Source of the DNA: Euglena gracilis | Lineage: Eukaryota | Reading direction: 5' to 3' | DNA length: 64,000 bases | NCBI GenBank assembly: GCA_039621445.1 | Contig: CP154954.1 | Coordinates: forward strand, 48,029,847-48,093,846 | Shown here: positions 7,122 through 59,830 of the stretch, one piece after another | Layout of the letters: each line of letters begins with the position of its first letter | Numbering within the stretch: the stretch's first letter is position 1 | Notes under the pieces: model-generated | Told to the model about the DNA's origin: nothing | The model's input: the letters and a program-made list of their open reading frames with translations, nothing else | Databases searched by the model: none | Position numbers and translations under genes: made by a program

Positions 7122-7209
7122 GGGGGCTGGCCACTCACCACACAGCAAGCTGGGCCAGAAGCGAAGTTAGCGCCGGCCATAAACAGACAAGGCGCCTTAG
7201 TGCAACTAA
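7122..7209 (+). mobile_element. Short retroposon-like insert, copy 2 (shorter)
   Basis: Same 3' end ...TGCAACTAA as 3157-3356. Flanked by GGGGGGGAGG direct repeat. Confidence 0.55.
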
Positions 7210-13495: not shown

Positions 13496-14722
13496 TACAT
13501 AAAAATCGTCCATGTCACCCGGATACACTGTGTATCCGGGTTCTAAGCGCCGAAGGCGCTTAGAACCCAGGCTCACGGTGTATCCGGGTTACAATGGACG
13601 ATTTTTATATATATCCGTGGACTAAGAGGCCCAAAACACAGACTGTGTTTCATGGAAACGCAAGGTCTACCCCATACGTTTTTCAATTTTTGGTCAAAAT
13701 GGATGTCCCCGAAAACACACCGTGTATCCGGGGACTCTCAGTCCACGAAACACAAGGTGTGTCCAGTCCACGAAAACACACCCTGTGTTTCGTGGACTGA
13801 ATTTTTTAAAAAATTGAACAGAATCATAGAAAATATGTCCCTCTAGTGACTAGAGGGACATATTTTCTATGAAGGCTATTCCTCGCCTTCCAGGACTAGA
13901 GTCTAGTCCTGGAAGGCGAGGAATAGCCTTCAGGCCAAGTTATTGGGGGCACTTTGGGGGGGGGGGCGGCGCCGAAGGCTCCCGGCCCCCTCCCAAAGGC
14001 CCCCACAATGCTTGGCCTGAAGGCATTTTTGGCTTAGAGCATGAAGGTGTGGCGTGGCGACGTTTTACCACATTTCGCTGCATGCCTTGCAGTTTTCTCT
14101 CTCTGAAATGAAGGGGAAAAAACGGCAAACAGTGCGGACCGCTTGCTCCCCCGACCCCTGAAACCTGATGAACTGGTTGCCACATTGCAAAAGAATTCGG
14201 TTGATTTGCAGCAGGGCTTTGCTGTCGACCCAATACACGGTACGCTGTTGGCCACCGCGTTGGAAGCGAAACCAACGGGAACCGCAAAGGCTGAGCGTAC
14301 AGCTGTTGCACGCCTGTTGGATTTCCATCAGGTGTGTACCCATCTGAACACTCAGTATGAGGACCTGGATGGTTGTTTCTTCTGCGTGGGCTGGTTGGGT
14401 CAATGACCCCGTTTATTTGTTTGATGTGGTTGCCCTTGTCAGACAAGCTGAGCAACAGCGCCGAGCACAGTGTGGCACGACGTTCAGTTTCGAGGCAAAC
14501 CTGCCTTCCACTGTCCGGGGCTATTTCAACTCTCTCGCACGGGTGTTCACATCCGTGTGTGTGTGTGTCCAGTCCACAAAAACACACCCTGTGTTTAGTG
14601 GACTGCCAGTCCCAGAAACACAGGGTGTGTTTTCATGGACATGGACTGGACACACACTGTGTTTCGTGGACTCGGTCCACAAAACACAGTGTGTGTTTTG
14701 GGCCTCAGTCCACGGATATATG
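13496..14722 (+). mobile_element. Hairpin-ended element, subfamily A
   Basis: Imperfect ~50 bp-stem hairpin 13499-13608 with GCGCC-GAA-GGCGC apex. IR ATATATCCGTGGACT at ~13609 and 14707-14721. Contains a gene fragment homologous to those in B, D and E. Confidence 0.75.
14119..14552 (+). pseudogene. N-terminal fragment of the putative YR protein (subfamily A), frameshifted
   Basis: KTANSADRLLPRP...VDPIHGTLLA...YEDLDG / WAGW...STVRGYFNSLARVF aligns by eye with the 26822 and 32217 ORFs. Confidence 0.7.
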
Positions 14723-23450: not shown

Positions 23451-26221
23451 AAAAACGTGTTCAGCCCGCCAAATGCCTGCCCTGAAATTCGTGGTCATGA
23501 ACACGTTTTCCATGAGGGCATTTGTGGCAAAGACGCGTTTTCCATTAAACCCCCCCCAAAAATAAGACCCGGGTCTTATTTTTGGGTCCGTTGCTGGAAA
23601 CCTCCAGGGGGGGTCTTATTTTGGGGGGGGTCTTATTTTTGGATTTTTTCTTGACCGACCCGAGCCCGAAAAAAACATCATTTTTCAGGTTCCCAAAAAC
23701 ACTGAAAATTTTCCTTCGGCGCTTCGCGCCACATGTAAATTTGTGTAAGTTGACATTTAGCATGCTTTTTGCACTTAACACAAACGCGCGCTGGTTCTCC
23801 TAAACCCCAATGTCGAGCCTCCCTCGCGAGGATTGCGGGGTTTGTGCCGCGGCGCAGAGGGCAAATGACTGGCAGCCCAGCCTGTGTGTGAAATTTGGGT
23901 TTTTGGCAATTTCTCAGGGAAAATTTTCACTGTCAGGGGGGGACTTATTTATGGGAGGGGGTCTTATTTTTGGATTTTTGCTCGATCGGCCCAGGGGGGG
24001 TCTTATTTTGGGGGGGGGTCTTATTTTTTGGGGGGGTCTTATTTTTGGGGGGGGTTTAGGGCATCTGTGGCAATGACACGTTCTCCATTAAGGCATCTGT
24101 GGCAATGACACGTTTTCCATTAAGGCATCTGTGGCAATGGCACGTTTTCCATTAAGGCATCTGTGGCAATCAAAAAATCGCTGTCATGAAAATTCGGCGA
24201 GAGGTTGAGAGGCCGGGTGGTCCTCTACCCTAGACTAGGTAGGTCTAGACTAGACTAGACTAGACTAGGTAGGTCTAGGGGGGCACTCTACAACACAAGA
24301 AACGGCCAGAGGTTGCCTTTGAGCAATACGACAGGGAGTGTTAGACGTCACGGAAAACGACACGCTTTACACAAAAAAGAGCCATACTTTGGTGGCCGCC
24401 GCAAATCTTGGCAATGAAAATGGTATGCCAAACCGCAGGCGTCACACACCACGCTCCACACGATTTAAATTTTTGGGAATGGCAACACCACAAAAACCAC
24501 ATTTGTCCTGTTTTATAGGCAGTCGGGACACAGCACGAGGTCGGGGGGGGGGGGTTGGCGCTCTGCAAAAGGCAACACAACTCCCTTGGTCGTGGTTTTG
24601 CGGACTGCCCGAGCGACGGCATTCACGTATGTATGAAAAGAGGTTGCCGAACGATTCCCTGAAACAAATATGCTTCCCGACTGCTGCGCACGTTGAGCCA
24701 CACATTGTTCAATGACGCTCGCCTCATTGAACAACAGGCTGGGTTCCAGCTCCCATCCCGTCCAGGCAACAAAGAAATCATCCAGCTCAGGATAAGATGC
24801 TTGCCGATGTTGACACTGTTTGGCGAACTCCAAACAATTGGCAACAGTAGCAAGCTCTGCACCTACGGAGTCAGACTTTTTCTTCGTGTTGCCCTGTGCC
24901 AGCAAGGTGCCATGAAGAGGGTCAACCTTCGACTTCTTGGCATCTTGCTGGTATCCCGCGAGAGCAGCCAGGGGGGGTGTTGGGGACGCGGGGGGGACGT
25001 GGGGGGGGGGACGCGGGGGGGGGCGGGGGCGGGGGCACCACCATTCTGGGTGCTATGCTGGCATTTTTTTTGATTTTTTTTTAAAAAGCAAAAAAAAATG
25101 TTTTTTTTAAAAAGCAAATTGGCAAAAAAGGGTTGTTTTTAAAATGCAGTTTTACAATGCATTACCATCTCCTTGTTCTGCCCAACACACCTTCACACCC
25201 ATCCTATTTCTTCCATTTCTATTTTTTGGGGTACTTGTTCGCTGTATTCATCCCCAAAACCACGACCCCCAAACGGCAGACCCTAACCCTAACCCTAATC
25301 AAGGTTGTCGGCTCTTTTTTTTTGAAACAAAAAACATTTTTTTTAAAAAACATGTTTTTTTAAAAAAAATAAAAAGACGTCATAGAGGGTTTGGATGAAA
25401 GTTTTTTTCTTAAGAAAACAGTGATTTTTCATCTCTGCATCCTTCGAAGTCTGCAAAGGGTGCTGGCTTTCACAACTGCGACACCTTGCCAACCACATCT
25501 TTTTGGGATGAGGATCTGGAAAACTAAAAAACGTCACTTTTGATGACCAAAAAAATGACTTTTGACCTTTTTCCTCAAAAAAATGGCCATTTCGAAGGAA
25601 AAAGCTCAATTTTTGTTTTTTAAAACAAACATGTTTTTTTGTTGTTTTTTTGAAGAAGAAAAAAAACGTCAACCCTGACCCAAACCCTAACCCTAACCCT
25701 AATCTTAACCCAAACCCGATTCCTTAAAGAACAAAAATTGAGGGTTTGGGCTAGGGTTGGGGTTAGGGTAAGGGTTAGGTGGGGGTCGTAGGCGGGGAGC
25801 AAACAAATGTCGTTTTTTGTTGGGCAAGGATAAAATTTTGATTTCTCACTTGTTTTTGCAATGTTCTTTTCCTTTCTCCGCTCTTCATTTCATCACAGCA
25901 AGCATGCCGGGACATTGCAGAAAAGCCTCTTCAAAAAAGGACACCAAGCCACTTGGTGGGGACGCGGGGGGGGACGCGGGGGGGGGATGCGGGGGGGACA
26001 CGGGGGCACAACCCCCAGGAACAGGTCCGTCCTAGGGGGAGGTGGCAAAAGACCATTCACAAAGTTTGCCGTGCGTTTAGCCATAGTGGGAGGGCTGTGA
26101 AAAAAAAAGGGGGGGAAAGGGGGGGGGGTACCACGTTTTCCATCAGGGCATCTGTGGCAATGACACATTTTCCATTAAGGCATCTGTGGCAATGACACGT
26201 TTTCGCCACAATTTGTGTATA
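23451..26221 (-). mobile_element. Hairpin-ended element, subfamily D, copy 1 (hairpin mostly deleted)
   Basis: Begins AAAAACGTGTTCAGCC after host CTT and ends CCACAATTTGTGTATA. Empty site CTT^AAAAGTCGGCG seen at ~12306. 32-bp subterminal repeats. Gene fragment 26084-24348 on minus. Confidence 0.8.
24348..24520 (-). pseudogene. PHD finger at the C-terminus of the element gene (one frameshift)
   Basis: KCGFCG... / CDACGLAYHFHCQDLRRPPKYGSFLCKACRFP* gives the C4HC3 pattern. Confidence 0.8.
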
Positions 26222-26660: not shown

Positions 26661-29600
26661 TGTCATTGCCACAGATGCCCTAATGGAAAACGTGTCATTG
26701 CCACAGATGCCTTAATGGAAAACGTGTCATTGCCACAGATGCCCTCATTGAAAACTTGCCTAACCACAGATGCCTTAATGGAAAACGGCACCCCCCCCCC
26801 TTTTTCCGCAGCCTTCCCACTATGGCTAAACGCACGGCTAACTTTGTGAATGGTCTTTTGCCACCTCCCCCTAGGACGGAACTGTTCCTGGCTGCTCTCG
26901 CGGTATACCAGCAAGATGCCAAGAAGCCGAAGGTTGACCCTCTTCATGGCACCTTGCTGGCACAGGGCAACACAAAGAAAAAGTCCGGCTCCGTGGGAGC
27001 AGAGCTTGCTGCTGTTGCCAACCGTTTGGAGTGCGCCAAACTGTGTCAACATCGGCAAGCCTCTTATCCTGAGCTGGATGCTTTCTTTGTTGCCTGGACG
27101 GGATGGGAGCTGGAACCCAGCCTGTTGTTCGATGAGGCGAGCGTCATTGAACAATGTGTGGCTCAACGTGAGCAGCTGTCGGGAACTTTGTTCGTTTCAG
27201 GGACTCGTTCGGCAACCTCTTTTCAGACATACGTGAATGCCGTCGCTCGGGCATTCCGCAAAACAACGACCGATGCCCTCAAAGTATGGCTCTTTTTCGT
27301 GTAAAGTGTGTCGTGTTCCGTGATGTCTGCCACTCCGTGTTGTTGTGCTCCAAGGCAACCCAGCCTTCTGCCGTGTTGTAGAGTGGCCCCGACCCACCTC
27401 ACTCGTTGAGGACCACCCGGCCTCGCAACCGCCCGCCGATTTTTCATGACAGCGTTTTTTTGCTTTTTACTCAGGGTTGCCACAGATGCCCTAATGGAAA
27501 ACGTGCCTGACCATAGATGCCTTAATGGAAAACGTGTCATTGCCAAAGATGCCCTCATTGAAACCGTGTTTGGGCCGATTTCGAGACTTTGAAAGTCTTA
27601 AATCTTCGCCCAAAACACGGTTTCAAACAAGAACAGTGTTTTGGGCCAAGGTTTTAGGGGGGCCCAGGGGCGACCACGGCGCCTTCGGCGCCGCGGTCCC
27701 CGCCCCTAGGCTCCCCCTAACTCTTGGTCCAAACACAGTTCTTGACGCAGAAAACGTGCCTAACCACAGATGCCTTAATGGAAAACGTGTCATTGCCACA
27801 GATGCCCTCATTAAAACCTATTTTCTGGGCCCGACGCCTGTCTTGAAATTCTACTGACATTAAACGATTTCAGGCTGAAATTGTTTATGTCGGTCGATTT
27901 CCATTCAGGCGCCCGTTTATGAAAGTCGATTTCCATTCAGGCGCCCGTTTATGAAAATCGATTTCCATTCAGGCGCCCGTTTATGACAGTCGATTTCCAT
28001 TCAGGCGCCCGTTTATTGAAAGTCGATTTCCATTCCATTGAAATCTGTTGCTAGTCAGATTGGGAATTTTTAGTGATTTTTTGGACATTTTGTATTTCCA
28101 TTTTTTTCGACATTTTTGGTCCTATGGGGTTGTGGAGGAGTTATGGATCAGACAAAAACCAAATTTTGGGGCCAGGTGATCACAGCTGGCTGAACTTTGG
28201 ATGGAACAGACGGAAGGACGGTGCTTAAGATTATTATTTTCTGGATCTTCAGAAAAAGCATTCGGCATATTTGTCCTGAACCAGTTGTCATCACTGGTCA
28301 TCTAAAAGAAAAGCTTTCGGGTGAGGAGTTATTTGGCAATGTCAACCCTATTTTCTGCGCTCGACGCCTGTATTGCAATTATATTGACATCATCGGATTT
28401 CGGGCCAAGGCTGTGTTCATAGCAAAAGGCTGTGTTCATGGCTTTGGTCAAAATCTGTGTTTGTAATAAAACGCAGACTCTGGCCTGAGTCTCTGTTTCG
28501 AAACGCTGAGTCTGTTATTCGGCCTGAGTCTGCGTTTCGAAACGCAGACTCAGGTCAGAGTCTGCGTTTAAGAAGCAGTTCTTGATATAGAGATTGAAAA
28601 AAAGAAAAAAGCATTCCGAAAAAAAGAGACAAAATGTTGATCGACATTAACAGGTTTCAGGCTGAAACTGAAAATGTCCCAAAACGGAACAAAAAGGCAT
28701 TTCCAAGACATCGGAAACCGTTTAAGCCGGCGTTTGAGACGCCGGGCTCAGGACAGAACCGGCGTCCCCCCCCACGGGCTTCCGGACGCCGGTTCTGTCC
28801 TAAAGCCCGGGGTTAGGAACGCCGGCTTTGTCCAAAGCCCGGCGTCCGGTTTTCATTCCTAAAAATGTCACCAAAAGTGCCCAAAAGTGGCCCTAAGGTG
28901 CTGGTATGAGTGTTTCAACCATCAAGGACAATGAATTTTGCCATCTGGGGACCAGTGGGGTGGATATCCAAATTTGGTGAAAATTGGCCCAGATTTGGAA
29001 ATAGAGTACCGTGCAGCGTGGAAAGATCTGATGAGCACCGCTGGTCGTCTGTTGAAAAGAGCTTTCGATCGAGGGGTAACTTGGTACCCTAACGTTGCAC
29101 GCAGCCCGAGATACGCTCGCGATCGTCGGATCGGCCAGAATCTGAGTCGAAATTTGTCGCAATTTTCAGTGATTTTTGGTTTAAGATGCTTAATAAACCT
29201 TAGAGAAACGTTTTTCCTCTTCGAATCAACGACCTGAGGGCCTTGGAGGGGCACCAGAGTTGTGAAATTAGGATTCCCCACTGACAGAAAATAAGAGCTC
29301 CAGGCGACGTGGCTGAATTTGGTGGTGATCGCCAGTCGTCTGATGAAAAGAGCTTTCGATTGAGGGGTGAGTTTGTACTTGGACGATTGACACAGCCAGA
29401 AATACCCTCGCGATCGCCGGAATTTGGTGAAGTGCAAAGTGGTGTGACATTGCAGATCAGTGGTCGGAGATTGGTCCTGGGAGTGTCCTTTGGCCGAAGG
29501 GTGGGGACGCCGGTTCTGTCCTGAGCCCGGCGTCTCTAAAACGCCGGCTTAAACAAGAGGTCTCGGACGCCGGTTCTGTCCAAAGCCCGGCGTTCCAAAC

Positions 29601-30112: not shown

Positions 30113-32904
30113 AAGAAAAAAGTAAAAAAATCAAAAAAAACAAAAGGAAAAATTCATTGAAAAAACTCGTTATGAAACTCCCAAACCATACTTTGAATCC
30201 TACTAAGTTCAAAAACTGCCAAAAATGGTCAAACATTCAAAAATGCAACAAAAATAGAATTTTATGACTTTTTTTCATTTTTGTGGAAGGAAGTTTTTGG
30301 CAGAAATTACCCAGAAGTTCAATGTGTTTCCATCCATTTTGAGTCAAATTTACCGAATCAAATTTTGAGGGGGGGGGGCTTAAATTTCCGAAAAGGGGGG
30401 GGGGGTAATGCGGTTGATTGGAGGTCGGCCTGACCTCCAATGGTCGATAAGCCACAGCCAACGGTCGGCCCGACCTAGGTCGGCCCGACCATGGTCGGTA
30501 CGACCTCCGGGATCGTCATAGCCAATCATCTGCACGGAGCCCCAGAAGTTGCCAAAAATCATTGAGAATGTGCATTCAAAATTTTTTTCATACAAACCCC
30601 AGTGGGCGTTTTTTTTGTTTTTGTTAAAAAAACAATGTTAGAATTAAAAAAAAACAAAAAAAACAACGGCAAAAAAAACAGGCCGGCCCACTATGAAGTG
30701 GCCCTCCGGGGTCCGGCCAAGGTCCGGCCGGAACATGGATAAAAATTTTTGCACCATGCCCCCCCCCCCAGTTACCCCCACCCCTCCTCAAAGTGACCCC
30801 CCTTAGAGTGGCCAAAATTTTTTTGGCAAATTTGGTAACCCCACCCTCAAAGTGGCCACTTTCTTTTGGCGCCGAAGGCACCGAGGCCCAAAAATTGACC
30901 CCCCCCCCAAAGTGTCCCCTCCCCCAGAGTGGCCGTTTTGGGTTCCCGTGGTGCCACTTTGAGGGGGGGGGTGAGGGTAGTCACCCCCCCCCTTATTGGT
31001 CACCTTTGGGCCCCAGGCAAAAACAATTTTTTCGAAGGGAAATATTTTTCTTTGAAAAAGGGCCGATTTGGGCCGTCAGAATTTTTTTGCTGGTTGCCAT
31101 CCATGAAAAGTGCCCTGGAATGCCCAAAAACAACCTTGAAACCCCCAAGACTTGGGGCAGGGGGCAAAAGTTGGGCATAAATTGCCCCCCCCCCCCCAAG
31201 TACCCCCCTGTTAGTCACCCTTGGCCAAATTCACCTCCCAAGGGGGTGACTAACTGGGGGGGGGGGGCACGGTAAGTTAAATGGTCATAAAACACCTGAT
31301 TTTTTCCGAAAAAAATTTGACCTGATGGGAAAAAGGGTGTAGATCACAAATTTCACACAAAAATTCCCCCCCAAAAATGGTGGGGGTGCTATCGAAATTT
31401 TGTTTTCCGACCCCCCCCCCTAAGTGACCCCCCCCAAGTGGCCCTCTGGGGCAGGGGTGTAGAAGTAATTTTTTCTCGGGGGGGCGAGATCCTTGACAAA
31501 TGCCTAATGTAACCATTGTTTTTTTTTTCGCCGCCCACAGGACGGCAAGACGGCAGTGCTTTTTTGAAAGATGGCATTGAATGTGACAAAAAAATGTGGT
31601 AATTTCTGTCATGGCACAATCCACCACAATTTCGACTTTCAAGCCGCTCAACGGGCAGCAAGAGACGATGATGCCTTTCGTGGGGGTGGTTTGGGGGGAA
31701 CACCACATTTTTGGTGGCAACATTAGGAATCACCGAGCTGGAATTTTGGGGGGAAAATTCACAAATTAGGAATCCCCACACCTGAAATTAGGATTTTGAC
31801 ACCAAATTATAATCACCAAGCCCAAATTTGAAAAATTTACGCCTCAAAATCAAGAATCTGCCTGAGAATTTTATCAAATTAGGAATCACCGGCCAAAATC
31901 TTTCCCCACAAAATTTCGTCAAAAAGGGTCCTTGTTCGAGGCACGGGGGGGAGGGGGTCACGGGGGAACACCCCTGTGTTTTGGGATTTCTATACACAAA
32001 TTGTGGCTGAGCCCAGATTTCAGCCTGAAAACGTGTTCAGCCAGGGGGCCCCCGAAGGGGGCCCCCTGAACACGTTTTCAGGCTGAAATCTGGGCTCAGC
32101 CACAATTTGTTTGAAAACGTGCCGAACCACAGTTGCCTTAATTGAAAACGTGTCATTGCCACAGATGCCCTCATTGAAAACGTGTCACCCCCACCTTTTT
32201 CCGCAGCCCTCCCACTATGGCGAAACGCACGGCTAACTTTTTTTATTTATCTGGTATTTGTCTTTTACCACCTCCCCCTAGGACGGAACTGTTCCTGGCT
32301 GCTCTCGCGGTATACCAGCAAGATGCCAAGAAGCCGAAGGTTGACCCTCTTCATGGCACCTTGCTGGCACAGGGCAACACAAAGAAAAAGTCCGGCTCCG
32401 TGGGAGCAGAGCTTGCTGCTGTTGCCAACTGTTTGGAGTGCGCCAAACTGTGTCAACATCGGCAAGCATCTTATCCTGAGCTGGATGCTTTCTTTGTTGC
32501 CTGGACGGGATGGGAGCTGGAACCCAGCCTGTTGTTCGATGAGGCGAGCGTCATTGAACAATGTGTGGCTCAACGTGAGCAGCTGTCGGGAACTTTGTTC
32601 GTTTCAGGGAATCGTTCGGCAACCTCTTTTCAGACATACGTGAATGCCGTCGCTCGGGCATTCCGCAAAACAACGACCGAGGGAGTGGTGTTGCCTTCCT
32701 CAGAGAGAAAATCAGGACCTGACCGATGTTCCGTCTGTGTTTCCCACCGCCGAGCAACGTTCCGCTCCTGCGGTCAGCAGCTCCGTTCCCTCCCGTGACC
32801 AACCCCCTGTCCCTCGTGCTGTGTCCCGACTGCCTATAAAACAGGAGAAATGTGGTTTTTGTGGTGTTCCCATTCCCAAAAATCCAAATTGTGTGGAGCT
32901 GAAC

Positions 32905-34330: not shown

Positions 34331-34629
34331 AAAGTTGTGTGTGACGCCTGCGGTTTGGCATATCATTTTCGTCGGGGGCACTCTACAACACGACAGAAGG
34401 CTAGGTTGCCTTGGAGCACAACGACACGGAGTGGCGGACATCACGGAACACGACACGCTTTACACAAAAAAGAGCCATACTTTGGTGGCCGCCGCAAATC
34501 TTGGCTCACTCGTTGAGGACCACCCGGCCTCGCAACCACCCGCCGATTTTTCATGACAGCGTTTTTTGCTTTTTACTCAGGGTTGCCACAGGTGCCCTAA
34601 TGGAAAACGTGCCTGAACACAGATGCCTT

Positions 34630-34721
34630 TATATCAAGAACTGCGTCTTAAACGCAGACTCTGACCTGAGTCTGCGTTTCGAAACGCAGACTCAGGCCGA
34701 ATCTCAGGCAGACTCAGCCTT
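34630..34721 (+). mobile_element. Miniature hairpin-end element, subfamily F (second fragment 28466-28589)
   Basis: TATATCAAGAACTGCG with palindrome centred on GCGTTTCGAAACGC. Removal restores GATGCCTT^AAT. Confidence 0.6.
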
Positions 34722-37700
34722 AATCGAAAACGTGTCATTGCCACAGATGCCCTCATTGAAAACGTGCCTAACCACAGATGCCTTAACGTGACCCCCCCCT
34801 ATTTGTCACCCCCCCCCTAATAGTCGCCCCCCCCCTTGGGGGGGGCGACAATTAGGGGGGGGGTTACCCATGGACCCATGGAAATGTGGGGTGAATTGAG
34901 TAACCCCCCCCCTAATTGTCACCCCCCCCTAATAGTCGCCAGGGGGGTCAAAACGGTCCCAGGGGGGTGCCATATAGGGGGGGTCACGTTAATTGAAAAC
35001 GTGTCTGCCACAGATGCCCTCATTGAAAACGTGTTCATGACCACGAATTTCAGGGCAGGCATTTGGCGGGCTGAACACGTTTTTAAACAGAGGGATTTCA
35101 AAAAGAGTGCAAAATATGGAAAAAGAGACAGTACCCGCCCCCCAAGGTTCGGCAAATTTCGAAATTTTGGGAATTTTTCATCTCAATTGAAAAATTCGAA
35201 AAATTCGAATTTTTCGAAAATTTCAAAAATCGCGGAACGCGAATCTGGGTACCACCCCCCCCCTTTATTTGAGCACACCCACGGGCCAACGGACCCCCCA
35301 AATGCTCAAATAAGGGGGGGGGGGTCAAATAAGGGGGGGGGGCCAAAAATTCCTTTAGAAAAAGGGCAAAAAAAAATTTCGGCGCCTTCGGCGCATATGA
35401 AAAAAAATTTTCCCCGGACCCAAATGCTCAATTAAGGGGGGGGGTCAAATAAAGGGGGGGGGTATTCCTAATTCATCAGAATTATTGGTGCTCAGTGGAA
35501 AAGACTTGCATTTTGTGGACTCTGCAGACAACTCTAAGATGCCAGCCGGATGCAGGAGCATATGGTGAATTTGCCAATTCTTTCAGTGAATGTACATTTT
35601 CGTTTGTATTACGGCCAACAACGTGTGTGTTTTCTGGTTCCTGTTGCTGTTCCTGTTTGCTTTTCAATGGCAAAGAACTGGCCAGTTTTGGGCCAGATGT
35701 GGTGGCCAGTTTTCGGCCACATGTGCTGGCCAGTTTTGGGCAGAAGTGCTGGCCAGTTTTGGGCCACATGATGGCCAGTTTCGGCTTCCAATTTTGTCTA
35801 GCTTCAATTCCCCCCCACCCCTGGTACGGGGTGGGGTGGCCTGGGGGGGGGGGCTTCTGCGGGTGGGGGGGTCTGGGGGAGGGGGTTGGTTTTTTGTCCA
35901 TTTTATCCAGGGTTTCTGGGAGTGGTTCACCCCCTCCTCCCCTCCCCAGTCCCCCCCCGCTCCCCCCCCCCCTCGCCCCCTCCCCACGGCCCTGCCCAGT
36001 GTCTTGCCCTGTCCGCCCTTCCGCAGTCGTCCTCCTCTTCTTCTACCAGCCTCCCTAACGCCCGAACCACGCAGCCCCGCGCACTCCGCGTCCGACTCCT
36101 ATTCCCCCTGGGCACCCCCACTCCCGGCCCGAGCGTATTCCTGCTCTCACCCGCACCCGTCCCCCCCCCCCCTTTTCCTTTTTTTTTTTTTCCTTATAAT
36201 TTTTGGGGGCTTCTGCAGGTGGGGTGGTCTGGGGGAGGGGGTTGGTTTTTTGTCCATTTTATCCCGAGGGTTCTGCGGAGTGGGGGTGGACTTTTGCAAC
36301 TGTGGGGCCATGACTGGGGGGGGGGGGCGGCAAAAAAAATCCCCCGTTGGAGTCACGAGCGGGATTTTCCGCAAAAGGCAGGCAAAATTTATCTGAAGTA
36401 CTTCTCGAGAAGGTGCTTTTTCTGTCTGCGAGTACCTTGGAAATGCCGTCACCGTGGGAAGGACTGTAGCCAGCGGAAGAAAAACAGGTCCCCCTTGCAG
36501 TGCTTCACCCTGCGGAAATTTTGGAAATTTTCCTCACAAAAAATTCGAATAATTCAACTTTGAAAAATTCGAATTATTCGAAACGGAAAAAAACGCCGAA
36601 CCTTGCCGCAGCTATTTTGCATGTAACAAAAAAAGCGTACTGCCATCCGAAGGGCGGCAGGACGGTAATGCATTTTCCCCAAAAGCTTCCCAAAAAAGTG
36701 CCAAATTTGCAGAACTGGTGTGCTGTTCAAATAATTGAATTTAGAGGCCAAGTCAAGATTCCTGTTGCCGCCCGAAGGAGATCAGGCAGTAGACTTTGGT
36801 CATTTTGACCCCCCTCCCCCCCCCTATGGTGAAGTTCACCGTTTGAAAGTTCACCGGGGGGTCCCGGACCCCCTCCCCCCCTCTGCCTAACCCATCGGTG
36901 AACTTCACCGGTGAAGTTCACCAAGAGAGCACTTTTTTGGCCAAAAATGGCCAAAAAATGGCATTTGGGCAAGTTTTCGGAAATTTCGATAAAATTCCAT
37001 GAAGCATCAACCTCAAAATGACCATTTTGAGAGGAAAGGAGCAAAATTTTACCCATGAAAATTTCACCCCCAACCATCAAAACGGTGAAGTTCACCGGTG
37101 AACTTCACCGGTGAACTTCGCCGCCGAAAGTCCCCCCCCCCCCCCCCCCATATTGTCCCACCGACCTCTCCCCAGGAGGCCCGCCGGGACAATATGGGGG
37201 GGGGGACAATATGGGGGTACCAAAGGAAATTTCATTGACCGAGCCAAAAAAACCCCTCGTCGGCCGGGCCGAGGGACAATATGGGGGGGGGGACAATATG
37301 GGGGGGGGGGTGGTAAGCCCCCCCCCCCTCCCCCCCCCCGGTGAATGTTCACCGGTGAACTTCACCGGGGGGGTCCACAGCCCCCCCCCACCCCTGCCTA
37401 ACCTCCGAAGGGCGGCGAGACGGTACCATGCCCCCCCCCCCCATATAAGACCCCCCCCCATATAAGACCCCCCCCTGGCCGGCCGAAGGCCGGCCCTTTG
37501 GCCGGGACCAACCCCCCCACCCCCCCCCATATAAGACCCCCCCCCTGGGATTTTGGCTCCCAAGGGGGGGTCTTATATGGGGGGGGGGCATGGTAGTGGT
37601 GATACTCACAAACAATAGCCCCAAATTGAAAAAAGGAAGATTTTCGCTCCCTCCGACCCATGAGTTTTGGACTTGTTTGGCCGCCCGAAGGGCGGCGAGA

Positions 37701-38190: not shown

Positions 38191-38577
38191 GAGGGCCTCT
38201 GTGCAGGGCGGGATTGAGGTTGAGGATTTCAAAAAAAGTTCAACCTCAATGTCAACGACCTCAACCTCAACCTCAACCTCAATGTTACCTCAATGCCCAA
38301 AATTCAAAAAAAAAGAACTCACAAAAAGCATGGATTGGACCATCTCCTCTTCTAAACCCTTCCTCAAAGGCAATTTTGACGCTTTTATGACAATTTACAA
38401 CATATGTGGGTGGAAACAAGAAAAAATAGTGGGGTGCCAGGGATGGAATTTAAACATCCCGGAAGAGTTTGATACGTTTAAAACGTTTTAAACTAGATTT
38501 AAACAGTTTAGAACGATTCAGATCGCGAAATGGACGTCATTCCTAACTCGTATGGCTGTTCTTATCCTTTTACAGCA

Positions 38578-39885
38578 TGCGACCTGCTACAACTGCTGCC
38601 GTCGCCGCACCTACAGTTCACGTTGCTCAGGCAATGTCTCGATGCGTGTAAAGTGAACGACCTGCTTCGAACCACACACCTCTCGGGAGCCAAGGCACCA
38701 TGCCATTCCTTCGCCACTCTCCTTCGGGACACGATGTCCGTCATCACCGCTCGACCACTGGATGAAAAACAGTGGGCACAAGCCTCTCTGCCAGTCCGCC
38801 TGGGGGGGCTTGGGATTCGAGACCCAGAGGTATCTAGAACACCGGCAAGGTGGGCGGCCATCCTTGACTTCCTCGCACGAGCGGACAGCACCCTGTGCCT
38901 ACCTGAGGGTTGCCCCCAGCTGCCACGGGACTACGGAGAGACCGGCTTGGTGATCTCAGGCCTCACGAAAGGGGTGGCGCCGGTGGGTGACCTCCTAACG
39001 GACCCCAGCAAAGTGAGTTCCTTGTCTCCCACGATGTTGAAACAAAAATGGTGGACAGATGAGGTCGTCAAGGTCCGGGCAGACCTGCTTTTGGCTGGCC
39101 TTGCTGGAAATGACGCGGTCCGTTTCGCATGCCAGCGAAGGCCGCACGCCATGGCATGGGCAGCGGTAAATCCCTCTGCTCCCCTGAAAACCCTCATCCC
39201 ACCGGCTGAATTCAGAGCCCTGACGCAGTGGTCCTTGGGGTGCCAAGTCTGCCCCACAACGACAGATGGCTCCTTGCCGGAATGCCCCCGCTGCCACCAA
39301 CAAATGGATGTTGCAGGGAATCACCTTGTCTGCTGCCCCAAAAACAACACTTTGCGGCGACATGGTGCCCTCCAAACGTTCGTTTTGGAACTTGCGAGAA
39401 AGGCCGGATTCATGGCTCGACGGGAAGAGGTGGCCGACAATCGGACGAGGCCTGGAGATGTCTTCATCACGCGATTCGACGCGGACGGACCTGCAGCAGT
39501 GGATGTCACGGTCCGCCACCCGCTGCAACCAGCAAACCCAGTCTCCTCAATGGACGCCTTGGCACGGTGGCACGACTTGCAAGAGGGAGACAAAGAACGC
39601 AAGTACGCAGCTACCTGCCAGCGGCTGGGATGGACGTTCATCCCGTTTGTGGTGGACTGCTTCGGAGGGATGGGGGAGCGAGCGGCAGGATTCATATCCA
39701 AGTGCCTTCGCACTGTGTTGGCACAGACTGATGTTCCTCAAAGGCGATCGTCGGAGGCTACGGTATGGCAAGCACTGAGTCTAACGTTGGCAAGAGAAGT
39801 GGCTCGCCAGCTGGCTTGGGGGGCAGTGGCGGAGCCATCAGGCGATGTGGATCCCTCAACCCACACCCCATACGCCACGGAATAA
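38578..39885 (+). CDS. RT thumb region, CCHC zinc knuckle and restriction-like endonuclease (C-terminal part only)
   Basis: QASLPVRLGGLGIR; CPRC...HLVCC; RRH; RPGD...VDVTV; K..KY; FIPFVVDCFGG. These are typical CRE/RLE-clade motifs. Frame is open. Confidence 0.9.
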   Translation, partial: CDLLQLLPSPHLQFTLLRQCLDACKVNDLLRTTHLSGAKAPCHSFATLLRDTMSVITARPLDEKQWAQASLPVRLGGLGIRDPEVSRTPARWAAILDFLARADSTLCLPEGCPQLPRDYGETGLVISGLTKGVAPVGDLLTDPSKVSSLSPTMLKQKWWTDEVVKVRADLLLAGLAGNDAVRFACQRRPHAMAWAAVNPSAPLKTLIPPAEFRALTQWSLGCQVCPTTTDGSLPECPRCHQQMDVAGNHLVCCPKNNTLRRHGALQTFVLELARKAGFMARREEVADNRTRPGDVFITRFDADGPAAVDVTVRHPLQPANPVSSMDALARWHDLQEGDKERKYAATCQRLGWTFIPFVVDCFGGMGERAAGFISKCLRTVLAQTDVPQRRSSEATVWQALSLTLAREVARQLAWGAVAEPSGDVDPSTHTPYATE

Positions 39886-43331: not shown

Positions 43332-47776
<4,445 letters not shown>

Positions 47777-50295: not shown

Positions 50296-52000
50296 CCGGG
50301 GGTGGCCATATTCGGCGGGGCCTAATGTCAGAATCCTTTTAATTCGCACACGATTTTTGTCGTGAAAAAGCCTGACGAACACGGCCTGTTTGCGTGATAA
50401 AACCCTGACCTCTTTTCACCATATTTTCATGAAAGTTCCAATTAGGATCAGCCTATACTAGCGCAAGCAACAACGCCCAGGACTTCCTAATTGGGTCTCT
50501 GGCGGGTGTATCTTCCTCTTGGAATTCGTTGCTTATCTTTATTCTAACTTCAGGTACAAGCTATGGTTACTGAATGCACTGGTATTGGATAGTTTGAGGA
50601 TTGAAGCAGGTATGCCCATGTCGTTTTGAAGAATTATTCTACTGGTCTTTTCTAGTGCATCTGGACCACTTTCAAAAATGTGGCATTTTCTTCAAAATTT
50701 GGTTCCCTGAGTATTAATTTTGAGGGCCACCCTCTTGTTTGGCATGTCTTCTGCTGGGGGTCCTATTTTAATATCATTTTCTGAGTGTTATCATGGTTTT
50801 CTGGTCGTGTTTTACAGTGTTGGAACTTTTGCTGCCATTTCACAGAGCTCCATTATACAGCTCTGAGTCTTTGGCCTGGCGTTTTAAGGACATTTTGGCC
50901 TTGCATTTCTGTGTTTTCCTGCTTTCGAATTTACTTTCCTTCGCCTTCAAACTGCAATTCTGTAAATTGAACCCAGTGCATTGCATTGCGTCATGTTTTT
51001 TACCACATTGCATGTCATCTGTTTGTCTTTCATCTGTCATCCTTGACTCACAGGTTGAAGAGTGAAGAAACAGAAGAACCAAGAAGAGATGAAGAGTAAT
51101 GAAGTTAAGGTTTTCAGAATGTTTTTGTCAGGGTCCTGTGGTGTTTTGCGAAAGAAGCACAGGACCCTGCCGCTGTAAATTACATCTTCTTTGTAGCGAC
51201 GTTGCCTTTCCTTTGGTGCATTCAACAAAGGTTGTTTCACTTGTTTTTTTTGCCAAAAGGGCTTTGGTTGTTCTGCGTTTTAGTTCTGAAAGCTTTCTGT
51301 TGAGACCCCCCCCAGTTTGGGGAACACTTTTAGTGCCACAGGTGGAAACCAGTTTTGGTGCCCCAGGTGGGGACCAATTTTGGTACCACCCCCCCCCCCT
51401 TTATTGTCCCCCCCCCTTTATTGTCCCTGGGCCCCGGCCGACGGGGGGTTTTTTTGGCCCGGCCAATGAAATTCCTTTGGTACCCCTTTATTGTCCCCCC
51501 CCCTTTATTGTCCGGTCGGGCCTCCCGGGGGCAGGTCGGTGGGACAATAAAGGGGGGGGGGGTGGTACCAAGGGTTTCTTTTCTTGGGCAGGGGCGGGGG
51601 GGTTTCAAAAAATTTTCTTGGTCCTTTTTATTTCCAGACAAAACTGAAGGGGAATTAGCCCGAATGCAATCCGTTTTTTCCCCCGAGTGGGGCTTTATGG
51701 GTTTGAATTCCCCGGCAAGCCGGCTGTCGCACCGTTCGCATGCAACAGAAGCAGTTCATTTTCCGTCTTTTAGTCAGTGAAAACGAACTTTGCACGCTCC
51801 GAGAAATTACTGATTCAATTACGCGACACTCTTCGGCCTCGACTTATTCAAGTGCCGGAGTTCCTACTGCTCGCCGTTGAAGCATCCGCCGGCATGGATG
51901 CTGTGATTAAACCTGGCGAACGCAGCCGTCGAGCGTAATAAAACCCGGCGATGTTGCGCCGTGATGACTTTACCCTACTTCGAATTTTGGTGCCCTCCGG
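50296..52000. mobile_element. TA-flanked TIR element nested in E
   Basis: CCGG(G/A)GG ends with TA duplication. Removal restores the E terminus as seen at 57177. Confidence 0.75.
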
Positions 52001-52111
52001 TAGGCGCAGGGACTCAGGACAGAGTCTGCGTCTAAGACGCAGGACTTCGGGCAGGACGGAGTCTGCGTCTTAAGACGCAGACTCCGTCCTGAGTACTGCG
52101 TCTTAAGGAAA

Positions 52112-52940
52112 ATGTGGGAGCACACAATTGGGGGTTCCTGTGTTCCAGGAATTTTTGTTTGTGGACTGGCTTTGAAACATTTTCTTGTTTCCCCTGCAAA
52201 TTTTTCATCGTTCCGATCCGAACGACAACTAATTTACGGCCATCTTCGTGAGTGGACAACTGAAAGTTGCCCACCCGAAGGTCCAAGAGGGAATCTGGAC
52301 GAACACCCAATTGAAAGGCCATGAGCAGTAAATTCATCCTCTGGGATTCATACCAACTCTTCCAATTTGTTTGGGTAAAAAGTTGTGCCACCTTGGGTCG
52401 GTCAAAACCGCCACAGACTCCTTCCGTGCCATGAAATTGCGGGACCATGTGCAAGCAGCGTTGAAAAAGAGCACAAAATTTGGAAACTGTTTGCTTGCAA
52501 TGGGGACAATGCCATGTTCGGGACGCGTAGTCTTGTACGCCGAAGCCAATGCGTTGACTGTTGTTCTTAAGGTTGTGGGGCTCCATTCCCGAACAGCAAC
52601 ACCACTGGCTCGACAAATTTCCTTCCTCTGTTGTAGGGCTGATTGACACCGTCCACTTTCCAAAGGCAGTGAACCACTCATCCAAATTCGGCAAAATGAT
52701 CTGCCTGTGGTCCAACACCTTTGCAAAGTCCAACGCGGCGAGAATTGCCATTTTTCGGTTTCTCTCTGTTCCTGGAGGAGGACGAGCCACTTTGGAAAAA
52801 GTGTCCCCAAATAGGGCGGTGTCTGCTGGCAAATCTTCGAAAGGAGTGTATGCTTTTTTCAAAGCTTCTAAAAATTCAGGTACAGGTGGCAAGGGTCCAA
52901 AGCCTGCCTCAGCCACGTTCACCAACTGTGCGGCCATCAT
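52112..52940 (-). CDS. Tyrosine recombinase-like (Crypton-type) protein, C-terminally truncated
   Basis: LLLMAFQLGVRPDSLLDLRVGNF (box I Arg, codon 52299-52301), GTMKN (catalytic Lys position) and RNPQLCAP. The HxxR...Y half is absent. Confidence 0.7.
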
Positions 52941-53526
52941 CGTGATTGGCTGTGTGTGTGTGTGAGAGATAATATAACAAAAATTCCGCTGTCAAAGCCG
53001 CAGACTCCGTCCTGAGTCCCTGCGCCTCTAATACGCAGACTTAAAAAAAACTGCGTCTTAAGACGCAGACTCCGTCCTGAGTCCTGCGTCTAAGACGCAG
53101 GACTCAGGACGGAGTCTGCGTCTAAGACGCAGTTTTTGCTATAAAGGGGGGGGGTCAAATAAAGGGTGAGCTAAGATTGGTTCACCCTTGCGATCAAAGG
53201 CAAAAATTTGGACCATCATTTTCCCCTTTGTTTTTTTTGCCGGTTTTTTTGCCCGTTTTTTTTTAATAAAAAACAAAAAACTTTTTGTTAAAAAAACCAA
53301 AAAACGCCAGCTATGAGACGCACACAGACGCACACAGACGCACACAGACGCACACAGACGCACACAGACGCACACAGACGCACACAGACGCACACAGACG
53401 CACACAGACGCACACAGACGCACACAGACGCACACAGACGCACACAGACGCACAACGACGCACACGGACGCACACGGACGCACACGGACACACACAGACG
53501 CACACAGACACACACAGACACACACA

Positions 53527-53581
<55 letters not shown>

Positions 53582-54776: not shown

Positions 54777-57700
54777 AACAAAATCCCTTGTGTTACCCAC
54801 CCATTTTGGGGGGCAAATCCCTTTTGTTGCCCATATTCGAGGGTCCCAAAATAACAAAATCCCTTGTATTACCCACCTGTTTTCCCTTGTGTAACCCAAT
54901 TGTTTTGGGGGACAAATCCCCTCCATTGCCCAACTGGTCGAGGGCCCCAAAGCAACAAAATCCCTTGTGTTACCCACCCGTTTTGTAAGGTAAATCCCTT
55001 TTATTGCCCAACTGTTCGAGGGCCCCAAAATAACAAAATCCCTTGTGTTACCCACCCATTTTGGTGGGCAAATCCCTTGTGTTACCCACCCGTTTTTGGG
55101 GACAAATCCCTTTTGTTGCCCAACTGGTCGAAGGCCCCAAAATAACAAAATCCCTTGTGTAACCCACCCGTTTTGGGGGGGGCAAACACAAGGAGGTTTC
55201 TTGTTTTGGGGCCCTCGAACGGCTGAGCAACAAAAGGGATTTGTTTCCCAAAACGGGTTGAAAACATTTTTGTTGTTCTTGGGGCCCGCAAACATGGGTG
55301 GTCATGTTGTGATGTTGTGGGGGTCGACCGAGGGCGACCAACCTTGCAAAAAGGGGGGGGGGTCCGGCTCTGGGGTGGGGGTCAACCATGGTCACCCTCG
55401 GTCGACCCCCACAACCGTGGCTCGGTCACCCTCGGTCACTCTCGGCCCCCCCCCCCCCACGACCCAGGGCGACCGAGGGCGACCGAGGCGACCGTGGGCC
55501 GACCATGGTCGACCCACAGGGGGGTTGGTACACCCCTCCCCCCCCCCTCTCCGAGGGCCTCGCCACGCCATTTACCCCCCCTCCCCCCCCCCCTAGCCGG
55601 ACCCCCTCGCCACGCCACCGGGTATTTTCGCGATTTTTTGAACGAAATTTTTGTTGGAAACCATGGTACACCCCCCCCCCCCCCCTGGCCGCCGACCCCC
55701 TCGCCACGCCATTTACCCCCCCTCCCCCCCCCTATTCGGACCCCCTCGCCACGGCGTACCAACCACCCACACAACTCCCCCCCCCCAGGCCAAATCTACC
55801 TCCCCCTCCGGGATGCCCGTTGTGCCAAACCCATTGCTACGGGGATCACTTCGTGTGCTGCGAGAAAAAGGATGCACGCCAGTTTAGTACCTTTGTTCTT
55901 GTTCTCACCGCAGTTACACCGCAGTTATCTGGACTCCTCCAATGGGAACAATAAGGGGGGGGATAGCAAAGGGGGGGGCATGGTAATTCGGAGGTTCGGC
56001 AGCCACCCCCCCCCCCTCTGGTGGTCGGAGGGGCCCCCCCCTGGTCAGCCGACCCCCTCGGTACCATACTTGCAGATAGTGCGACCGGAAAAATTGTTTC
56101 CGTGCGCCGCGACCACCGCGGAAATTTTTTTTTTGTAACCGGCAGCGCCGCGGCAAAATTTTTTCTGTGCGCCGCGAATGCCGTGGCACTGGTTTATGTG
56201 TGCGCCGCAAACGCCGCGGAAACTTTTGAAGTTTGTGCCGCGACCACCGCGGCAATTGTCTTTTTAAATTGTGTCCCACACATACTTCTTTTGGCCCCTT
56301 CCCCTGCCTGGCCTCTTTGATACTTTCTCGACCATGGCCGAGAAGGGTATTTGGCGGCAGGGAGTGAACTTTTGTGCAAGCGTTCCTGTTTGTTTTCAAG
56401 ATCAGCTTTCACCATCTATCAATCTACCCCCCCCCCCTTATTGTCCCACCCACCTGCCCCCGGGAGGCCCGACCGGACAATAAGGGGGGGGGGACAATAA
56501 GGGGATACCAAAGGAATTTCATTGGCTGGGCCAAAAAAATCCCCCGTCGGCCGGGGCCCAGGGACAATAAGGGGGGGGGGACAATAAGGGAGGGGGGGTG
56601 GTAATTGTTTCCACCAAAAAAATGTTGGGTGTTGTGTTGCTGCCAATATGTTCTTGAGCTTTGGGCAGAAATTTTTTTGTGCCGCAACCACCGCGGAAAA
56701 ATTTTCCCCTTGCGCCGCGACCACCGCGGCAATAAATTTTGCTTGTGCCGCGACAGCCGCGGCAAAAATCTTTCTATGCGCCGCGACCACCGCGAAATCT
56801 TTTTTTTGCGCCGCGGCATGAGCGCCGCGGCGCACTAACTACAAGTATGCTCGGTACGGCATGCCAAACCATACCAATGTATTTTCCTTTGGTAAATTCC
56901 TTACTGTTCCCATGGAGCCGTGACCCCCATTTGGGCAATTAATTGTCATTTTTTCAGGTCAAGCGATTACACCTAACGCCCGATTCTTTTGCACTCCACA
57001 CCGTATTTATTTGCACTTTTGGTCAATATTTTTGCACTTTATCTCAAAAATGTTTGCACATGTTAAAATTTTGTTCGCACGTTATCTCAAAAATGTTTGG
57101 CACTTTATGTCAAAAATGTTTGCCTACGTTCCGAATTTTTTTGCACACGGATCGGGTGTTTTGCACTTTTGCCCTTAAGTCCGCGTCTTAGGTGCAGGGA
57201 CTCAGGACAGGGTTTGCATCTTCCGCCGGACTTCAGGCATGAGGTCTGTGTCTTGAGACGAAGACCATCCAAAGTGCCGCGTCTTTGTTGGAACCCCCCA
57301 AAATCGACCAAAATGGTTCAGAAAGCAGAAATGAATGGGTTGAAGCAGAAATGTCATTGCTGCATAAAGCCGATTGACCTCAGGATTTGTCCCATTTCAT
57401 TCCAACTTTTGACAAATGAGTTACATTGGTTCGTTTCAAGCCGTTTTGAGCTGTTTTCCAAATACAATTCACTGCAAATGGACAATAAAACTCCAAGGCC
57501 AACATGCGGTATTGAGAAAAATCAAAGACAGGAGTTCTTGGACATTTCCAAATACCAATTTCTGGTTTTGGAGTTGGGAAAAATCTTGACCATCACAAAT
57601 GCACTGCTCAAAGAAGCGCATTGAGTGTTTGTTACGCTCAATGTTAGAAAGGAGAGACATAGCGACGCGATGTAGTGTGATGATTTTTTGGCAAATAAAA

Positions 57701-59830
57701 ACACTGCATATGTGGGCATCGTGCATCAAAACCCCAAAAAATTGAAGATAATTTGCAAAATACCCTCACCCCCCCCTCAAAGTATCTGCCGTTTGAGGCA
57801 TTTTTGGCTGGTTTTCTGCCATTGCAGGCAGTTTTTTTTTGCACTAATTCTGGGCATTTTGGATTTTTTGGGGCCAATTCATGGTCATCGTGGATTTTTT
57901 GATGTCGTGTTCAATCCATTGAGGCTTCATTTTGGGCAGTTTTTTTTTTTGGCAGATGGTTACATTGTCTAATATTTTTGATAAGTTTCGGAAATGCTGG
58001 GCCGTTTGTGTGATTTCAGGTTTTTGACCAGATTTTGAATTGTGTCCATCCATTTTGTCCACGCGACTGACAAAAATATTTGCCCAATCCAGTCAAAATT
58101 TTCGCCCAGCGCCCACAAAAAAATTTGCCCAGAGCTGTCAAAAATTTTTGCACCGCGCCGCCAAAAATATTTGCACTTGCTCAAAAAATATTTGCCCTCC
58201 GTCATTTTATTTTTGCACAATGAAAAAAAGCGTTGCATTGGACAACGGAAAAAGATCCATGCCGTTTGAGTGTCTCAGGACACATTTTTTTTTAAGTCTG
58301 CGTGTTAGAGGCGCGGGGACTCAGGTCGGGGTCTGCATCTTTGACAGCCTACGGAAAGCACAAATGTTCATTGTGTTCACGTAGAGTTGGTGAACACCCT
58401 ATTTGGCCATTTTGGCTGCTCGCACAAGGCCTCCCGTTCTTGGCCAAAACTTTTTGAAAATTTTGGTTTACCCCCCTCAAAGTGGCCATTTCTGTTGGTG
58501 CCGAAGGCGCCGAAGCCCAAAATTTGACCCCCCCCCCAAATTGTCCCCTCCCCCAGAGCGGCCATTTTGGGGTCCCGTGCTGACTGGAGGGTGGCCACTT
58601 TGAGGGGGGGGTGAGGGGGCAAACATTTCGGACGCTAGGTGTAACCAATTTTCAAAACCATGCCTGTCCCTCAATTAATTTTGATTAACCGCCACCCTAT
58701 CAATTCCCCCCCCCCAAAAAGTCATTTGTCTTTCTTGCTCACTCCACAATAGGCCAAGGACCCCAAAAATTTGGCGTTCAGATAACGTGGTGTCAAAAAC
58801 AGAGTTTACATTCAAGGCTTTTTGAAAGAATTTTTCATCCACATTGGCACTGAACACGACCTTGCCATTTCCTTGAAGAAATGTTCCCAACCTCGGGACA
58901 TTTCTTCTTCCAACAACAAAAAATAAGCAATTAACTGGGGGGGGTCAAGTATCAATCCAACGCTTCATGCAGAGCGGGTTGGCTAACGGGGGGGGGCAAA
59001 CCCCCAGATGCCCCCCTATTTAAGAGCCCCCCTGGGATTTTGGCTCTCAAGGGGGGTTTTATATGGGGGGGGCATGGCAGACCCTGTATTTTTTGGGGGT
59101 GCCACCCCTATGACCCCCCTCCCCCGCGACCCCCCACCCCCCGTTACCCCGCGAAACGAACCTCCAATTTTCATACAATGGGGGTGTATGAGGCGCGTGG
59201 AGGGGGGGCACGAAGGGGGGTCTGTCACGGGGGGAATGTGGCAGCTTTGACGGTCACGTGTGACCAGTGTGACCTCACATACAATGTAACCTATTTTTAG
59301 AACTTTTGCGACAAAAATAGATCCAATTAGGAATTTATCACACATTTTTGGCAATTTTGATTCCTAAATTGGGTTCCATTTCCTAATTAGTTGCCATTTT
59401 TGGTTCCTACTGGGATCTGGAAACCCTCCATGTGTGGGTCGGTGGGGGGTCGCTTTTGCTCTATTTTCAGAACTCAAGTTTTCCAAAAGGGGGGGGGTTG
59501 AACGTGAAGTTTGTATTTTTTTTGAAAAAGGATGCAGCCACCATGAACTTAAGAGAGCAATTGTCGACAGGTGGAATTCAAACCAAGCTCATTGTGTGAG
59601 TTGAAAGAGAAGTTGAACTCTGCCTCCACCACTTTTCAAGCCTTGCCCACGTAACCGCGGTGTACATTGCACATTTCTGCGAAGAATCGGACGTACCACC
59701 TCCCCCCCCCCCAATTGAACCCCTCCTAATTGACCAAACGCCCCGGGGGAAATTTTTTCAACCCCCTCCCCTGATTGACTGCCCGGGGGGCATTGCGTGC
59801 TAAAGCATCCAACCTGCATGCTTCACAGCC

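Follow-up and report, generated by a model that had tools for sequence, protein, structure and literature searches.

A truncated copy of a probable transposon in Euglena gracilis and a putative family of Cre-like tyrosine recombinases

Element E and its gene fragment

The window analysed here is a stretch of 64,000 nucleotides (nt) of Euglena gracilis DNA (contig CP154954.1), and the subject is element E, a 1.14 kb sequence on its minus strand (nt 52002-53145) that carries a fragment of a predicted tyrosine recombinase gene between two sets of terminal repeats. Read along the minus strand, the element opens with the motif TTTATAG (53145-53139), its 5' terminus, which stands directly before a hairpin of 92 nt (53137-53046). 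A T-run and linker, a 29-nt repeat (52999..53027, minus strand) and a 58-nt spacer lead to the start codon at 52940; no other open reading frame (ORF) precedes or follows that of the recombinase, which begins about 60 nt inward of the left repeat. The gene fragment is followed by a second hairpin (52100-52005, 96 nt) and then by the inverted copy of the 29-nt repeat (52002..52030, plus strand), which forms the outer end. The 5' hairpin is a near-perfect palindrome (self-match 96.8%) with the units GACGCAGGACTC-AGGACG-GAGTCTGCGTC, and its predicted DNA fold has an energy of -57 kcal/mol (z -16.9); the 3' hairpin is made of the same units and folds at -42.3 kcal/mol (z -10.7), and for each of them 0/200 shuffles were as good. 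The left repeat (AGGCGCAGGGACTCAGGACGGAGTCTGCG) and the right repeat (AGGCGCAGGGACTCAGGACAGAGTCTGCG) differ by one mismatch. A single unit, two inverted arms of ~11 nt around the 6-nt spacer AGGACG, builds both the hairpins and the repeats.

The initial annotation had reported at this place an open frame with recombinase motifs that is cut off by the element's own subterminal repeats, and both observations hold. The frame is a minus-strand ORF of 302 amino acids (aa; 52032..52940, ATG at 52940) that begins MMAAQLVNVA and includes the motifs AFQLGVRPDSLLDLRVGNF with GVRPDS (Arg codon 52299-52301), KLVVVRIGTMKN with GTMKN (Lys codon 52203-52205) and NPQLCAP (from 52136); only one full copy of it is present in the window. 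Sequence searches of this ORF against Pfam and the PDB gave nothing relevant, including no match to Phage_integrase. It has four relatives in a collection clustered at 90% (best E 1.4e-45, P0002), and in a library clustered at 50% it matches 116 representatives at E<=1e-3, 46 at <=1e-10 and 7 at <=1e-30 (best 8.6e-51). These scores lie far beyond chance and rule out a chance ORF.

Alignment to the relatives divides the gene into three pieces. Piece 1 (52638..52940, minus strand) contains the start codon and the first part of the core-binding domain (profile positions 1-101, hmmsearch E 3.7e-27), and in frame -3 is 60% identical to residues 1-100 of P0004, the closest relative. It is followed at 52644..52645 by the site of a frame-shifting deletion of ~35 nt (11 codons + 2 nt), where the gene is 11 residues short relative to the complete relative P0010. 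The deletion was also apparent in contigs of a 2025 run (X1) and of a separate study from 2018 (X4), both under the same organism label, which have loose ends on both sides of it, and in record 12 of a further contig set (X15), which has 34 unplaced letters between two parts that both include 52644. Piece 2 (52397..52651, minus strand) specifies the rest of the N-terminal domain and the linker (profile 109-197, hmmsearch E 6.1e-26), and lies in another frame (-1) than that of the printed ORF, with 63% identity to residues 113-171 of P0004. A 1-nt deletion at 52395..52396 restores the first frame; the contigs carry an extra T behind 52395 (5/5 in X1, 5/5 in X4, 1/1 in X15). Piece 3 (52119..52394, minus strand) covers the first half of the catalytic domain with Arg I and the beta-hairpin Lys (profile 199-290, hmmsearch E 3.9e-37). 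Homology to the relatives stops at 52119, after NPQLCA; beyond it the printed ORF continues for 28 more codons (52035..52118, minus strand), which read through the 3' hairpin and repeat and show no homology.

As the two deletions sum to 36 nt, the long frame stays open despite a misread middle: residues ~102-180 of the printed ORF (about 83 codons) are out-of-frame text, and judged by the alignments this part is open only by accident. Comparison with the public contigs shows both frame breaks to be private to the window copy or to its assembly. A detached C-terminal part of the gene was not found, profile positions 290-446 giving nothing below E 0.8 anywhere in the window. The copy keeps Arg I and Lys, while Arg II and Tyr fall in the deleted part. 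With the catalytic C-terminal third missing and two frameshifts it cannot, to judge by its sequence, encode an enzyme; it is a relic and not a working gene.

The recombinase family, its predicted fold and its putative active site

Complete members of the family have ~400 aa and extend ~115 residues beyond the point where the homology of the window copy ends, closing with the conserved blocks TFKD.ARR...T.LAN and AK..GV...T..YH. Pairwise identity within the family is 25-60%, and members that were named by their source are called 'hypothetical protein'. Some relatives (P0119, P0089) carry a PHD-like zinc finger at the C-terminus; in P0119 the matches to PHD_2 (E 3e-5) and PHD (E 6.8e-5) are both just under the cut-offs.

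The fold was assessed on the complete relative P0010 and not on the window copy. Its AlphaFold2 model, based on an alignment of 26 sequences, has a mean predicted local distance difference test score of 89.7 and a predicted template modelling (TM) score of 0.78. A Foldseek search of the PDB with this model returned Cre as the first match (E 3.6e-7, ~380 columns, TM-score 0.54/0.65), followed by lambda Int, XerH, XerA and Tn1549 integrase, with 43 matches at E<=1e-3. VIA-align also placed Cre first, with Z 19.4 and a root-mean-square deviation of 3.5 A over 292 residues (model residues 28-397, both domains), then XerA (16.9), XerH (16.5), Tn1549 Int (15.2), IntI (14.4) and lambda Int (14.2). 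All of the proteins at ranks 1-32 are tyrosine recombinases, type IB topoisomerases (TopIB), protelomerases or inactive derivatives, the last including MrpR (Z 11.8), SroF (11.6), QRICH1 (9.9) and Ndc10 (8.9). Almost all of the fold predicted for the family, the C-terminal helix after Tyr included, is shared with Cre, Xer, lambda Int, IntI and Tn1549 Int. The model supports a two-domain tyrosine-recombinase fold for the family, with a helical core-binding domain and a catalytic domain.

An N-terminal domain of ~120 aa had been set down as unrecognised in the window ORF. It turns out to be an ordinary recombinase core-binding domain (SAM-like/ALOG-like), part of which in the window copy is out-of-frame text. 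The N-terminal 185 residues of P0010 match the N-terminal domain of Cre, isolated integrase core-binding domains (Z 4-5) and the ALOG domain (Z 6.3), and the language-model neighbours of this part, which serve as leads only, are integrase SAM-like, QRICH1-like and ALOG clusters. The family differs from Cre in having about 27 additional conserved residues ahead of the core-binding domain.

Catalytic residues were identified by alignment of the P0010 family with Cre (hhalign, E 1.3e-3, probability 18%, 174 columns), using the Cre sequence from AF234172 and residue numbering as in Table 1 of PMC2943603; the two are 12-15% identical. Residue counts include every family member covering the given column. 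Arg I (R225 of P0010, R173 of Cre) is Arg in 79/81 members and the Lys (K257, Cre K201) is Lys in 73/74, and the box I Arg and the Lys of MKN in the window ORF, which had been proposed as tyrosine-recombinase features, are the residues that align here. Arg II (R349, Cre R292) is conserved in 34/35 members and the Tyr (Y378, Cre Y324) in 32/33, so that all four stand in place at a spacing similar to that of Cre. Longer copies had been expected to show H-x-x-R, H/W and Y. The second Arg and the Tyr were found, but at the His II column (C346, Cre H289) the family has C 20, V 8, L 3, I 2, Y 1 and M 1, with His in 0/35, and at the His/Trp III column (V370, Cre W315) it has V 27, I 3, M 2 and L 1, with His or Trp in 0/33. 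Arg I was also paired with R212 of lambda Int and R148 of XerD, the hhalign alignments to these two (probability 1% for lambda Int; 9.5% over 54 columns for XerD) being credible for Arg I only. Further differences from Cre are the family-specific invariants K344 (32 K and 3 R of 35), D345 (34/35) and R348 (34/35), together with a His at residue 379, right after the Tyr, in 30/33 members. On the basis of their conservation Lys344, Asp345, Arg348 and the His after Tyr are candidates to replace the lost histidines.

Substitutions of this kind can be compared with those made in Cre. According to the data of Gibb et al. (2010, PMC2943603), Cre strictly needs no residue of its active site other than Tyr and Lys, and at each Arg a single alternative residue is accepted. 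In the same data all substitutions of His289 are active except five (D, E, K, R, W), and Trp315 requires a large hydrophobic side chain, Leu and Met keeping detectable activity. The conserved set of the family corresponds to the four residues, Arg, Lys, Arg and Tyr, that recombinases share with TopIB, which likewise has no His II (PMC2943603, Table 1), and TopIB structures match the catalytic domain at Z 10.7-12.4. They differ in that TopIB keeps His III, while the N-terminal domain of the family and its best overall matches are of the recombinase type. Conservation of exactly these four residues despite divergence to 25-60% identity points to a working enzyme in the full-length members. The main caveat is an alternative register with Asp at the His II place, which is weighed below.

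Copies, proposed movement and possible origin of the elements

Four other copies of the gene are present in the window, and they likewise have no catalytic part. One belongs to a second lineage (14119..14596, plus strand; profile 5-167) and is an N-terminal-domain-only fragment in two frames, located between nested inverted repeats, with a perfect hairpin of 31-nt arms upstream (13870-13932, z -12.9). The others are N-terminal fragments of a third lineage (24549..24965, minus strand, profile 26-165; 26822..27274, plus strand, profile 2-153; 32265..32711, plus strand, profile 14-163) that share 93% DNA identity and subterminal repeats of ~32 nt, and represent one deletion derivative. The copy at 32 kb has a 115-nt hairpin upstream (31996-32110, -71.7 kcal/mol, z -17.7). 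The motifs TCTATG and TCTATAC precede the hairpins at 13870 and 31996, comparable to the TTTATAG of element E, and in all three sequence-unrelated lineages (element E, 14-kb, 32-kb) a long hairpin precedes the start codon by 100-190 nt. Solo ends of the element E family were also detected. A 5' end at 34626..34696 (plus strand) has TTTATA and a shorter hairpin, its homology to element E beginning at the TTTATA motif, and two decayed fragments are of the 3'-end type (57189..57265, plus strand; 79% to 52001-52082) and of the 5'-end type (58272..58348, plus strand; 87% to 52988-53064, inverted).

Contigs of X1 placed 992 pieces on the 1.25-kb stretch around the element at >=90% likeness (388 at >=99%, 324 at 95-99% and 280 at 90-95%). 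Summed depth in X1 was 33,000-64,000 at the ends, about 9,000-38,000 over the 5' part of the gene and 1,500-8,000 over the part with box I and Lys (52118-52330), figures that are contig depths and not copy numbers, in a locus with flanks that are repetitive too. The junction of gene and hairpin (52087-52228/52231) is spanned by single contigs with a depth of 1080 in X1 and 331 in X4, with one differing letter. Since contigs of two studies span the truncation junction, the truncated element is real and has itself been multiplied many times. Only three RNA reads were recovered from ~5% of one raw run, all on repeats, and they are uninformative on expression. The copy at 14 kb and the group at 24, 26 and 32 kb, though of unrelated lineages, both end at the boundary of the N-terminal domain near VPSSxKQFP (profile 153-167). 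As two lineages stop at the same boundary and read depth over the 5' part of the gene is several times that over the catalytic part, derivatives with only the DNA-binding domain may be favoured.

Taken together, the stretch 52002-53145 is probably a non-autonomous copy, with internal deletions and frameshifts, from a family of DNA transposons that have a single gene, specifying a Cre-like tyrosine recombinase of ~400 aa. In intact elements the recombinase would catalyse excision and integration, a mode of movement that has been proposed for Cryptons, and would bind and cross over at the end unit, with its two arms of ~11 nt around AGGACG in a geometry like that of lox or dif sites. Enzyme from intact copies would move the shortened ones in trans, and catalysis would depend on the four residues common to TopIB, without the two histidines.

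Several points beyond the limits on the contig depths weigh against this interpretation. For element E there was no sign of a target-site duplication, an empty site or a circle junction. The link of the intact gene to these ends rests on the truncated copies and on the upstream translation of P0002, a full-length relative with 35% identity, which is weakly similar to the translated left repeat. None of the 23 long members reached Pfam cut-offs; for Phage_integrase (PF00589) the gathering score is 27.1 bits, and sub-threshold matches in 6/23 scored 12-19 bits, always at profile positions 2 to ~50 (box I only). Weak helix-turn-helix (HTH) matches were found on the C-terminus in 12/23, and a search of PDB sequences with the family profile gave as its best hit a TetR HTH (E 0.17), with a XerC-like protein at E 1.4. 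Scans of metagenome contigs (queries A3 and P0007) and of viral contigs (query A3) gave pattern matches and no relative. Alignments of the C-terminus only fell short of significance (E 0.18-0.59) and place box II in differing registers. In that to XerD, a shift of one residue makes R348 the second Arg and sets D345 at the His II place (D 34, Q 1), a position at which Asp inactivates Cre according to PMC2943603. Arg II is thus ambiguous between R348 and R349 in these alignments, with no His in either register.

Two further observations concern the ends. A read 'joint' from 53135 to 52002 with 19 letters between resembled a circle or tandem junction; it is a variant 5' end placed ambiguously, and is not evidence of excision, since these 19 letters are similar to the linker with which the element itself joins hairpin and left repeat, and the hairpin forms a palindrome. 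Separately, the predicted N-terminal extensions of P0002, P0006 and P0011 contain repeated peptides (for example FRNADSV...FRNADFV) before the conserved MLPAQL start, which suggests that repeats also lie just upstream of intact genes.

Loss of both histidine positions (0/35 and 0/33), and in one possible register an invariant Asp at His II, would also suit a domesticated, catalytically dead derivative with a DNA-binding or regulatory role, like DUF3504/ZMYM, ALOG, Ndc10 or MrpR, for which the repeats would be binding sites and not crossover sites. The weak HTH-type matches at the C-terminus and the inactive derivatives among the structural neighbours (MrpR, SroF, QRICH1, Ndc10) agree with this. 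Such an origin is nevertheless unlikely, as 97-99% of members, with pairwise identities of 25-60%, retain Arg I, Lys, Arg II and Tyr, whereas domesticated DUF3504 genes are described in PMC3212892 as having lost Tyr and Arg II; moreover, the high copy and the many decayed, truncated copies between inverted repeats are the behaviour of a transposon and not of a host gene. A different possibility is that a recombinase fragment sits inside an unrelated carrier with hairpins and inverted repeats, similar to a miniature inverted-repeat transposable element (MITE), in which case the ends would belong to the carrier and be uninformative on how the recombinase element moves. This would account for end repeats that are deeper in X1 (33,000-64,000) than the gene body (1,500-38,000) and for the solo end fragments at 34.6, 57.2 and 58.3 kb, but it appears very unlikely when in three sequence-unrelated lineages the start codon of the same gene is preceded, at a similar distance, by a long hairpin, the gene lies within ~60 nt of the left repeat in a fixed orientation, and the sequence upstream of the 35%-identical full-length relative resembles that repeat in translation.

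The gene could also derive from a DIRS-like or other tyrosine-recombinase retrotransposon, the window copy being a deletion derivative minus the reverse transcriptase. A tyrosine recombinase of phage type also occurs in the eukaryotic mobile elements DIRS, Ngaro and VIPER, some of which have inverted terminal repeats, among them those of the DIRS1 type. DIRS-type elements with phage-like recombinases are reported in E. gracilis itself by a recent preprint (bioRxiv 10.64898/2026.05.21.726589). Element E differs in having only 1.14 kb, and its first and single ORF, that of the recombinase, begins ~60 nt inward of the left repeat. Of the 105 window ORFs with >=130 aa, the Pfam scan covered 77, the remainder being satellite translations or recombinase-family fragments, and these 77 gave no match to a reverse transcriptase, RNase H, methyltransferase or other Pfam family; for the family as a whole this is a weak test, as the copy is a deletion derivative. 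The complete proteins of ~400 aa come from contigs of 1.1-3.5 kb without any other domain, and longer or fused forms were absent among 7991 candidates, although that absence is weak evidence. A retrotransposon origin is accordingly given a very low probability.

The DNA transposon favoured here is best compared with Cryptons, eukaryotic DNA transposons encoding only a tyrosine recombinase (Kojima and Jurka 2011, PMC3212892). As defined in the descriptions of PMC3212892 and PMC13465315, a Crypton has the recombinase as its sole enzyme, no inverted or long direct terminal repeats, direct repeats of 4-6 bp and an R-H-R-Y tetrad. The family may resemble them in gene content, the recombinase being the only gene recognised and no reverse transcriptase lying nearby in the ORFs scanned, and its language-model neighbours (again leads only) include eukaryotic ALOG/Phage_integrase, QRICH1-like and oomycete core-binding-domain clusters. 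It differs in the ends, since element E has 29-nt inverted repeats and hairpins (92-115 nt in the window lineages), and in the protein, which has no His and no match to DUF3504 (PF12012; 0/23 long members at E<=1); the DUF3504 protein QRICH1 is a far poorer structural match than Cre (Z 9.9 vs 19.4). DUF3435, the domain of Starship Captains, was also matched by 0/23 long members at E<=1. The initial annotation was right to call a divergent tyrosine recombinase, here on a fossil copy, and its Crypton label is not supported: we read the family as probably Crypton-like in mode of action, and do not file it as Crypton or DUF3504, a separation made on the features of the ends and the protein.

More tentatively, Euglena may possess an undescribed superfamily of tyrosine-recombinase DNA transposons with asymmetric ends (TATA motif, hairpin, inverted repeat), a histidine-free R-K-R-Y site and very high copy, the commonest derivatives of which keep only the 5' end and the N-terminal domain. 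By analogy with the KP copies of the P element, such N-terminal stumps might be favoured, for example as trans-acting competitors or repressors. To our knowledge, only a few eukaryotic DNA transposons rely on a tyrosine recombinase for their movement (Cryptons, Starships), and biochemical reconstitution has not been achieved for any of them. Among the literature matches listed, a scope outside which supplements and Repbase lie, there was no description of this family or of such elements in euglenids, and none of recombinase transposons with hairpin and inverted-repeat ends. If the interpretation is correct, the known designs would be widened by ends that pair hairpins with inverted repeats, by shortened copies that still amplify and by an active site of four TopIB-shared residues. 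The value of the finding would lie in the family behind the window copy, which is itself only a fossil. With its complete proteins of ~400 aa and its defined ends, the family would provide candidates on which the movement of such elements could be tested directly, and, being missed by current domain libraries, it would be relevant to the annotation of the very repeat-rich genomes of euglenids.

Neighbouring repeats in the window

The longest non-repetitive ORF of the window (38512-39882, plus strand; 457 aa) had no match in Pfam (E<=0.01) or among PDB sequences (E<=1). A satellite with a 10-nt unit (CACACAGACG) occupies 4.4 kb (43334-47776) with 440 copies and 89% matches, and a second array of CACACAGACG units (53316-53581, 266 nt) lies ~170 nt from the 5' end of element E; the unit and the palindromes of element E have a common GCGTCT/AGACGC core. 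A MITE-like element of ~190 nt is present in four copies (51380-51571, 56426-56603, 37135-37315 and 8417-8590) that are 88-94% alike, with 34-nt inverted ends rich in C/G runs (TTGGTACCACCCCCCCCCCCTTTATTGTCC...), and one of these lies ~430 nt from the 3' end of element E. Arrays of a ~33-nt unit with the core GCGCCGCGACCACCGCGG occur at 56086-56264 and 56661-56824 (444-477 nt apart), between a MITE-like copy and a decayed end fragment of the element E family.

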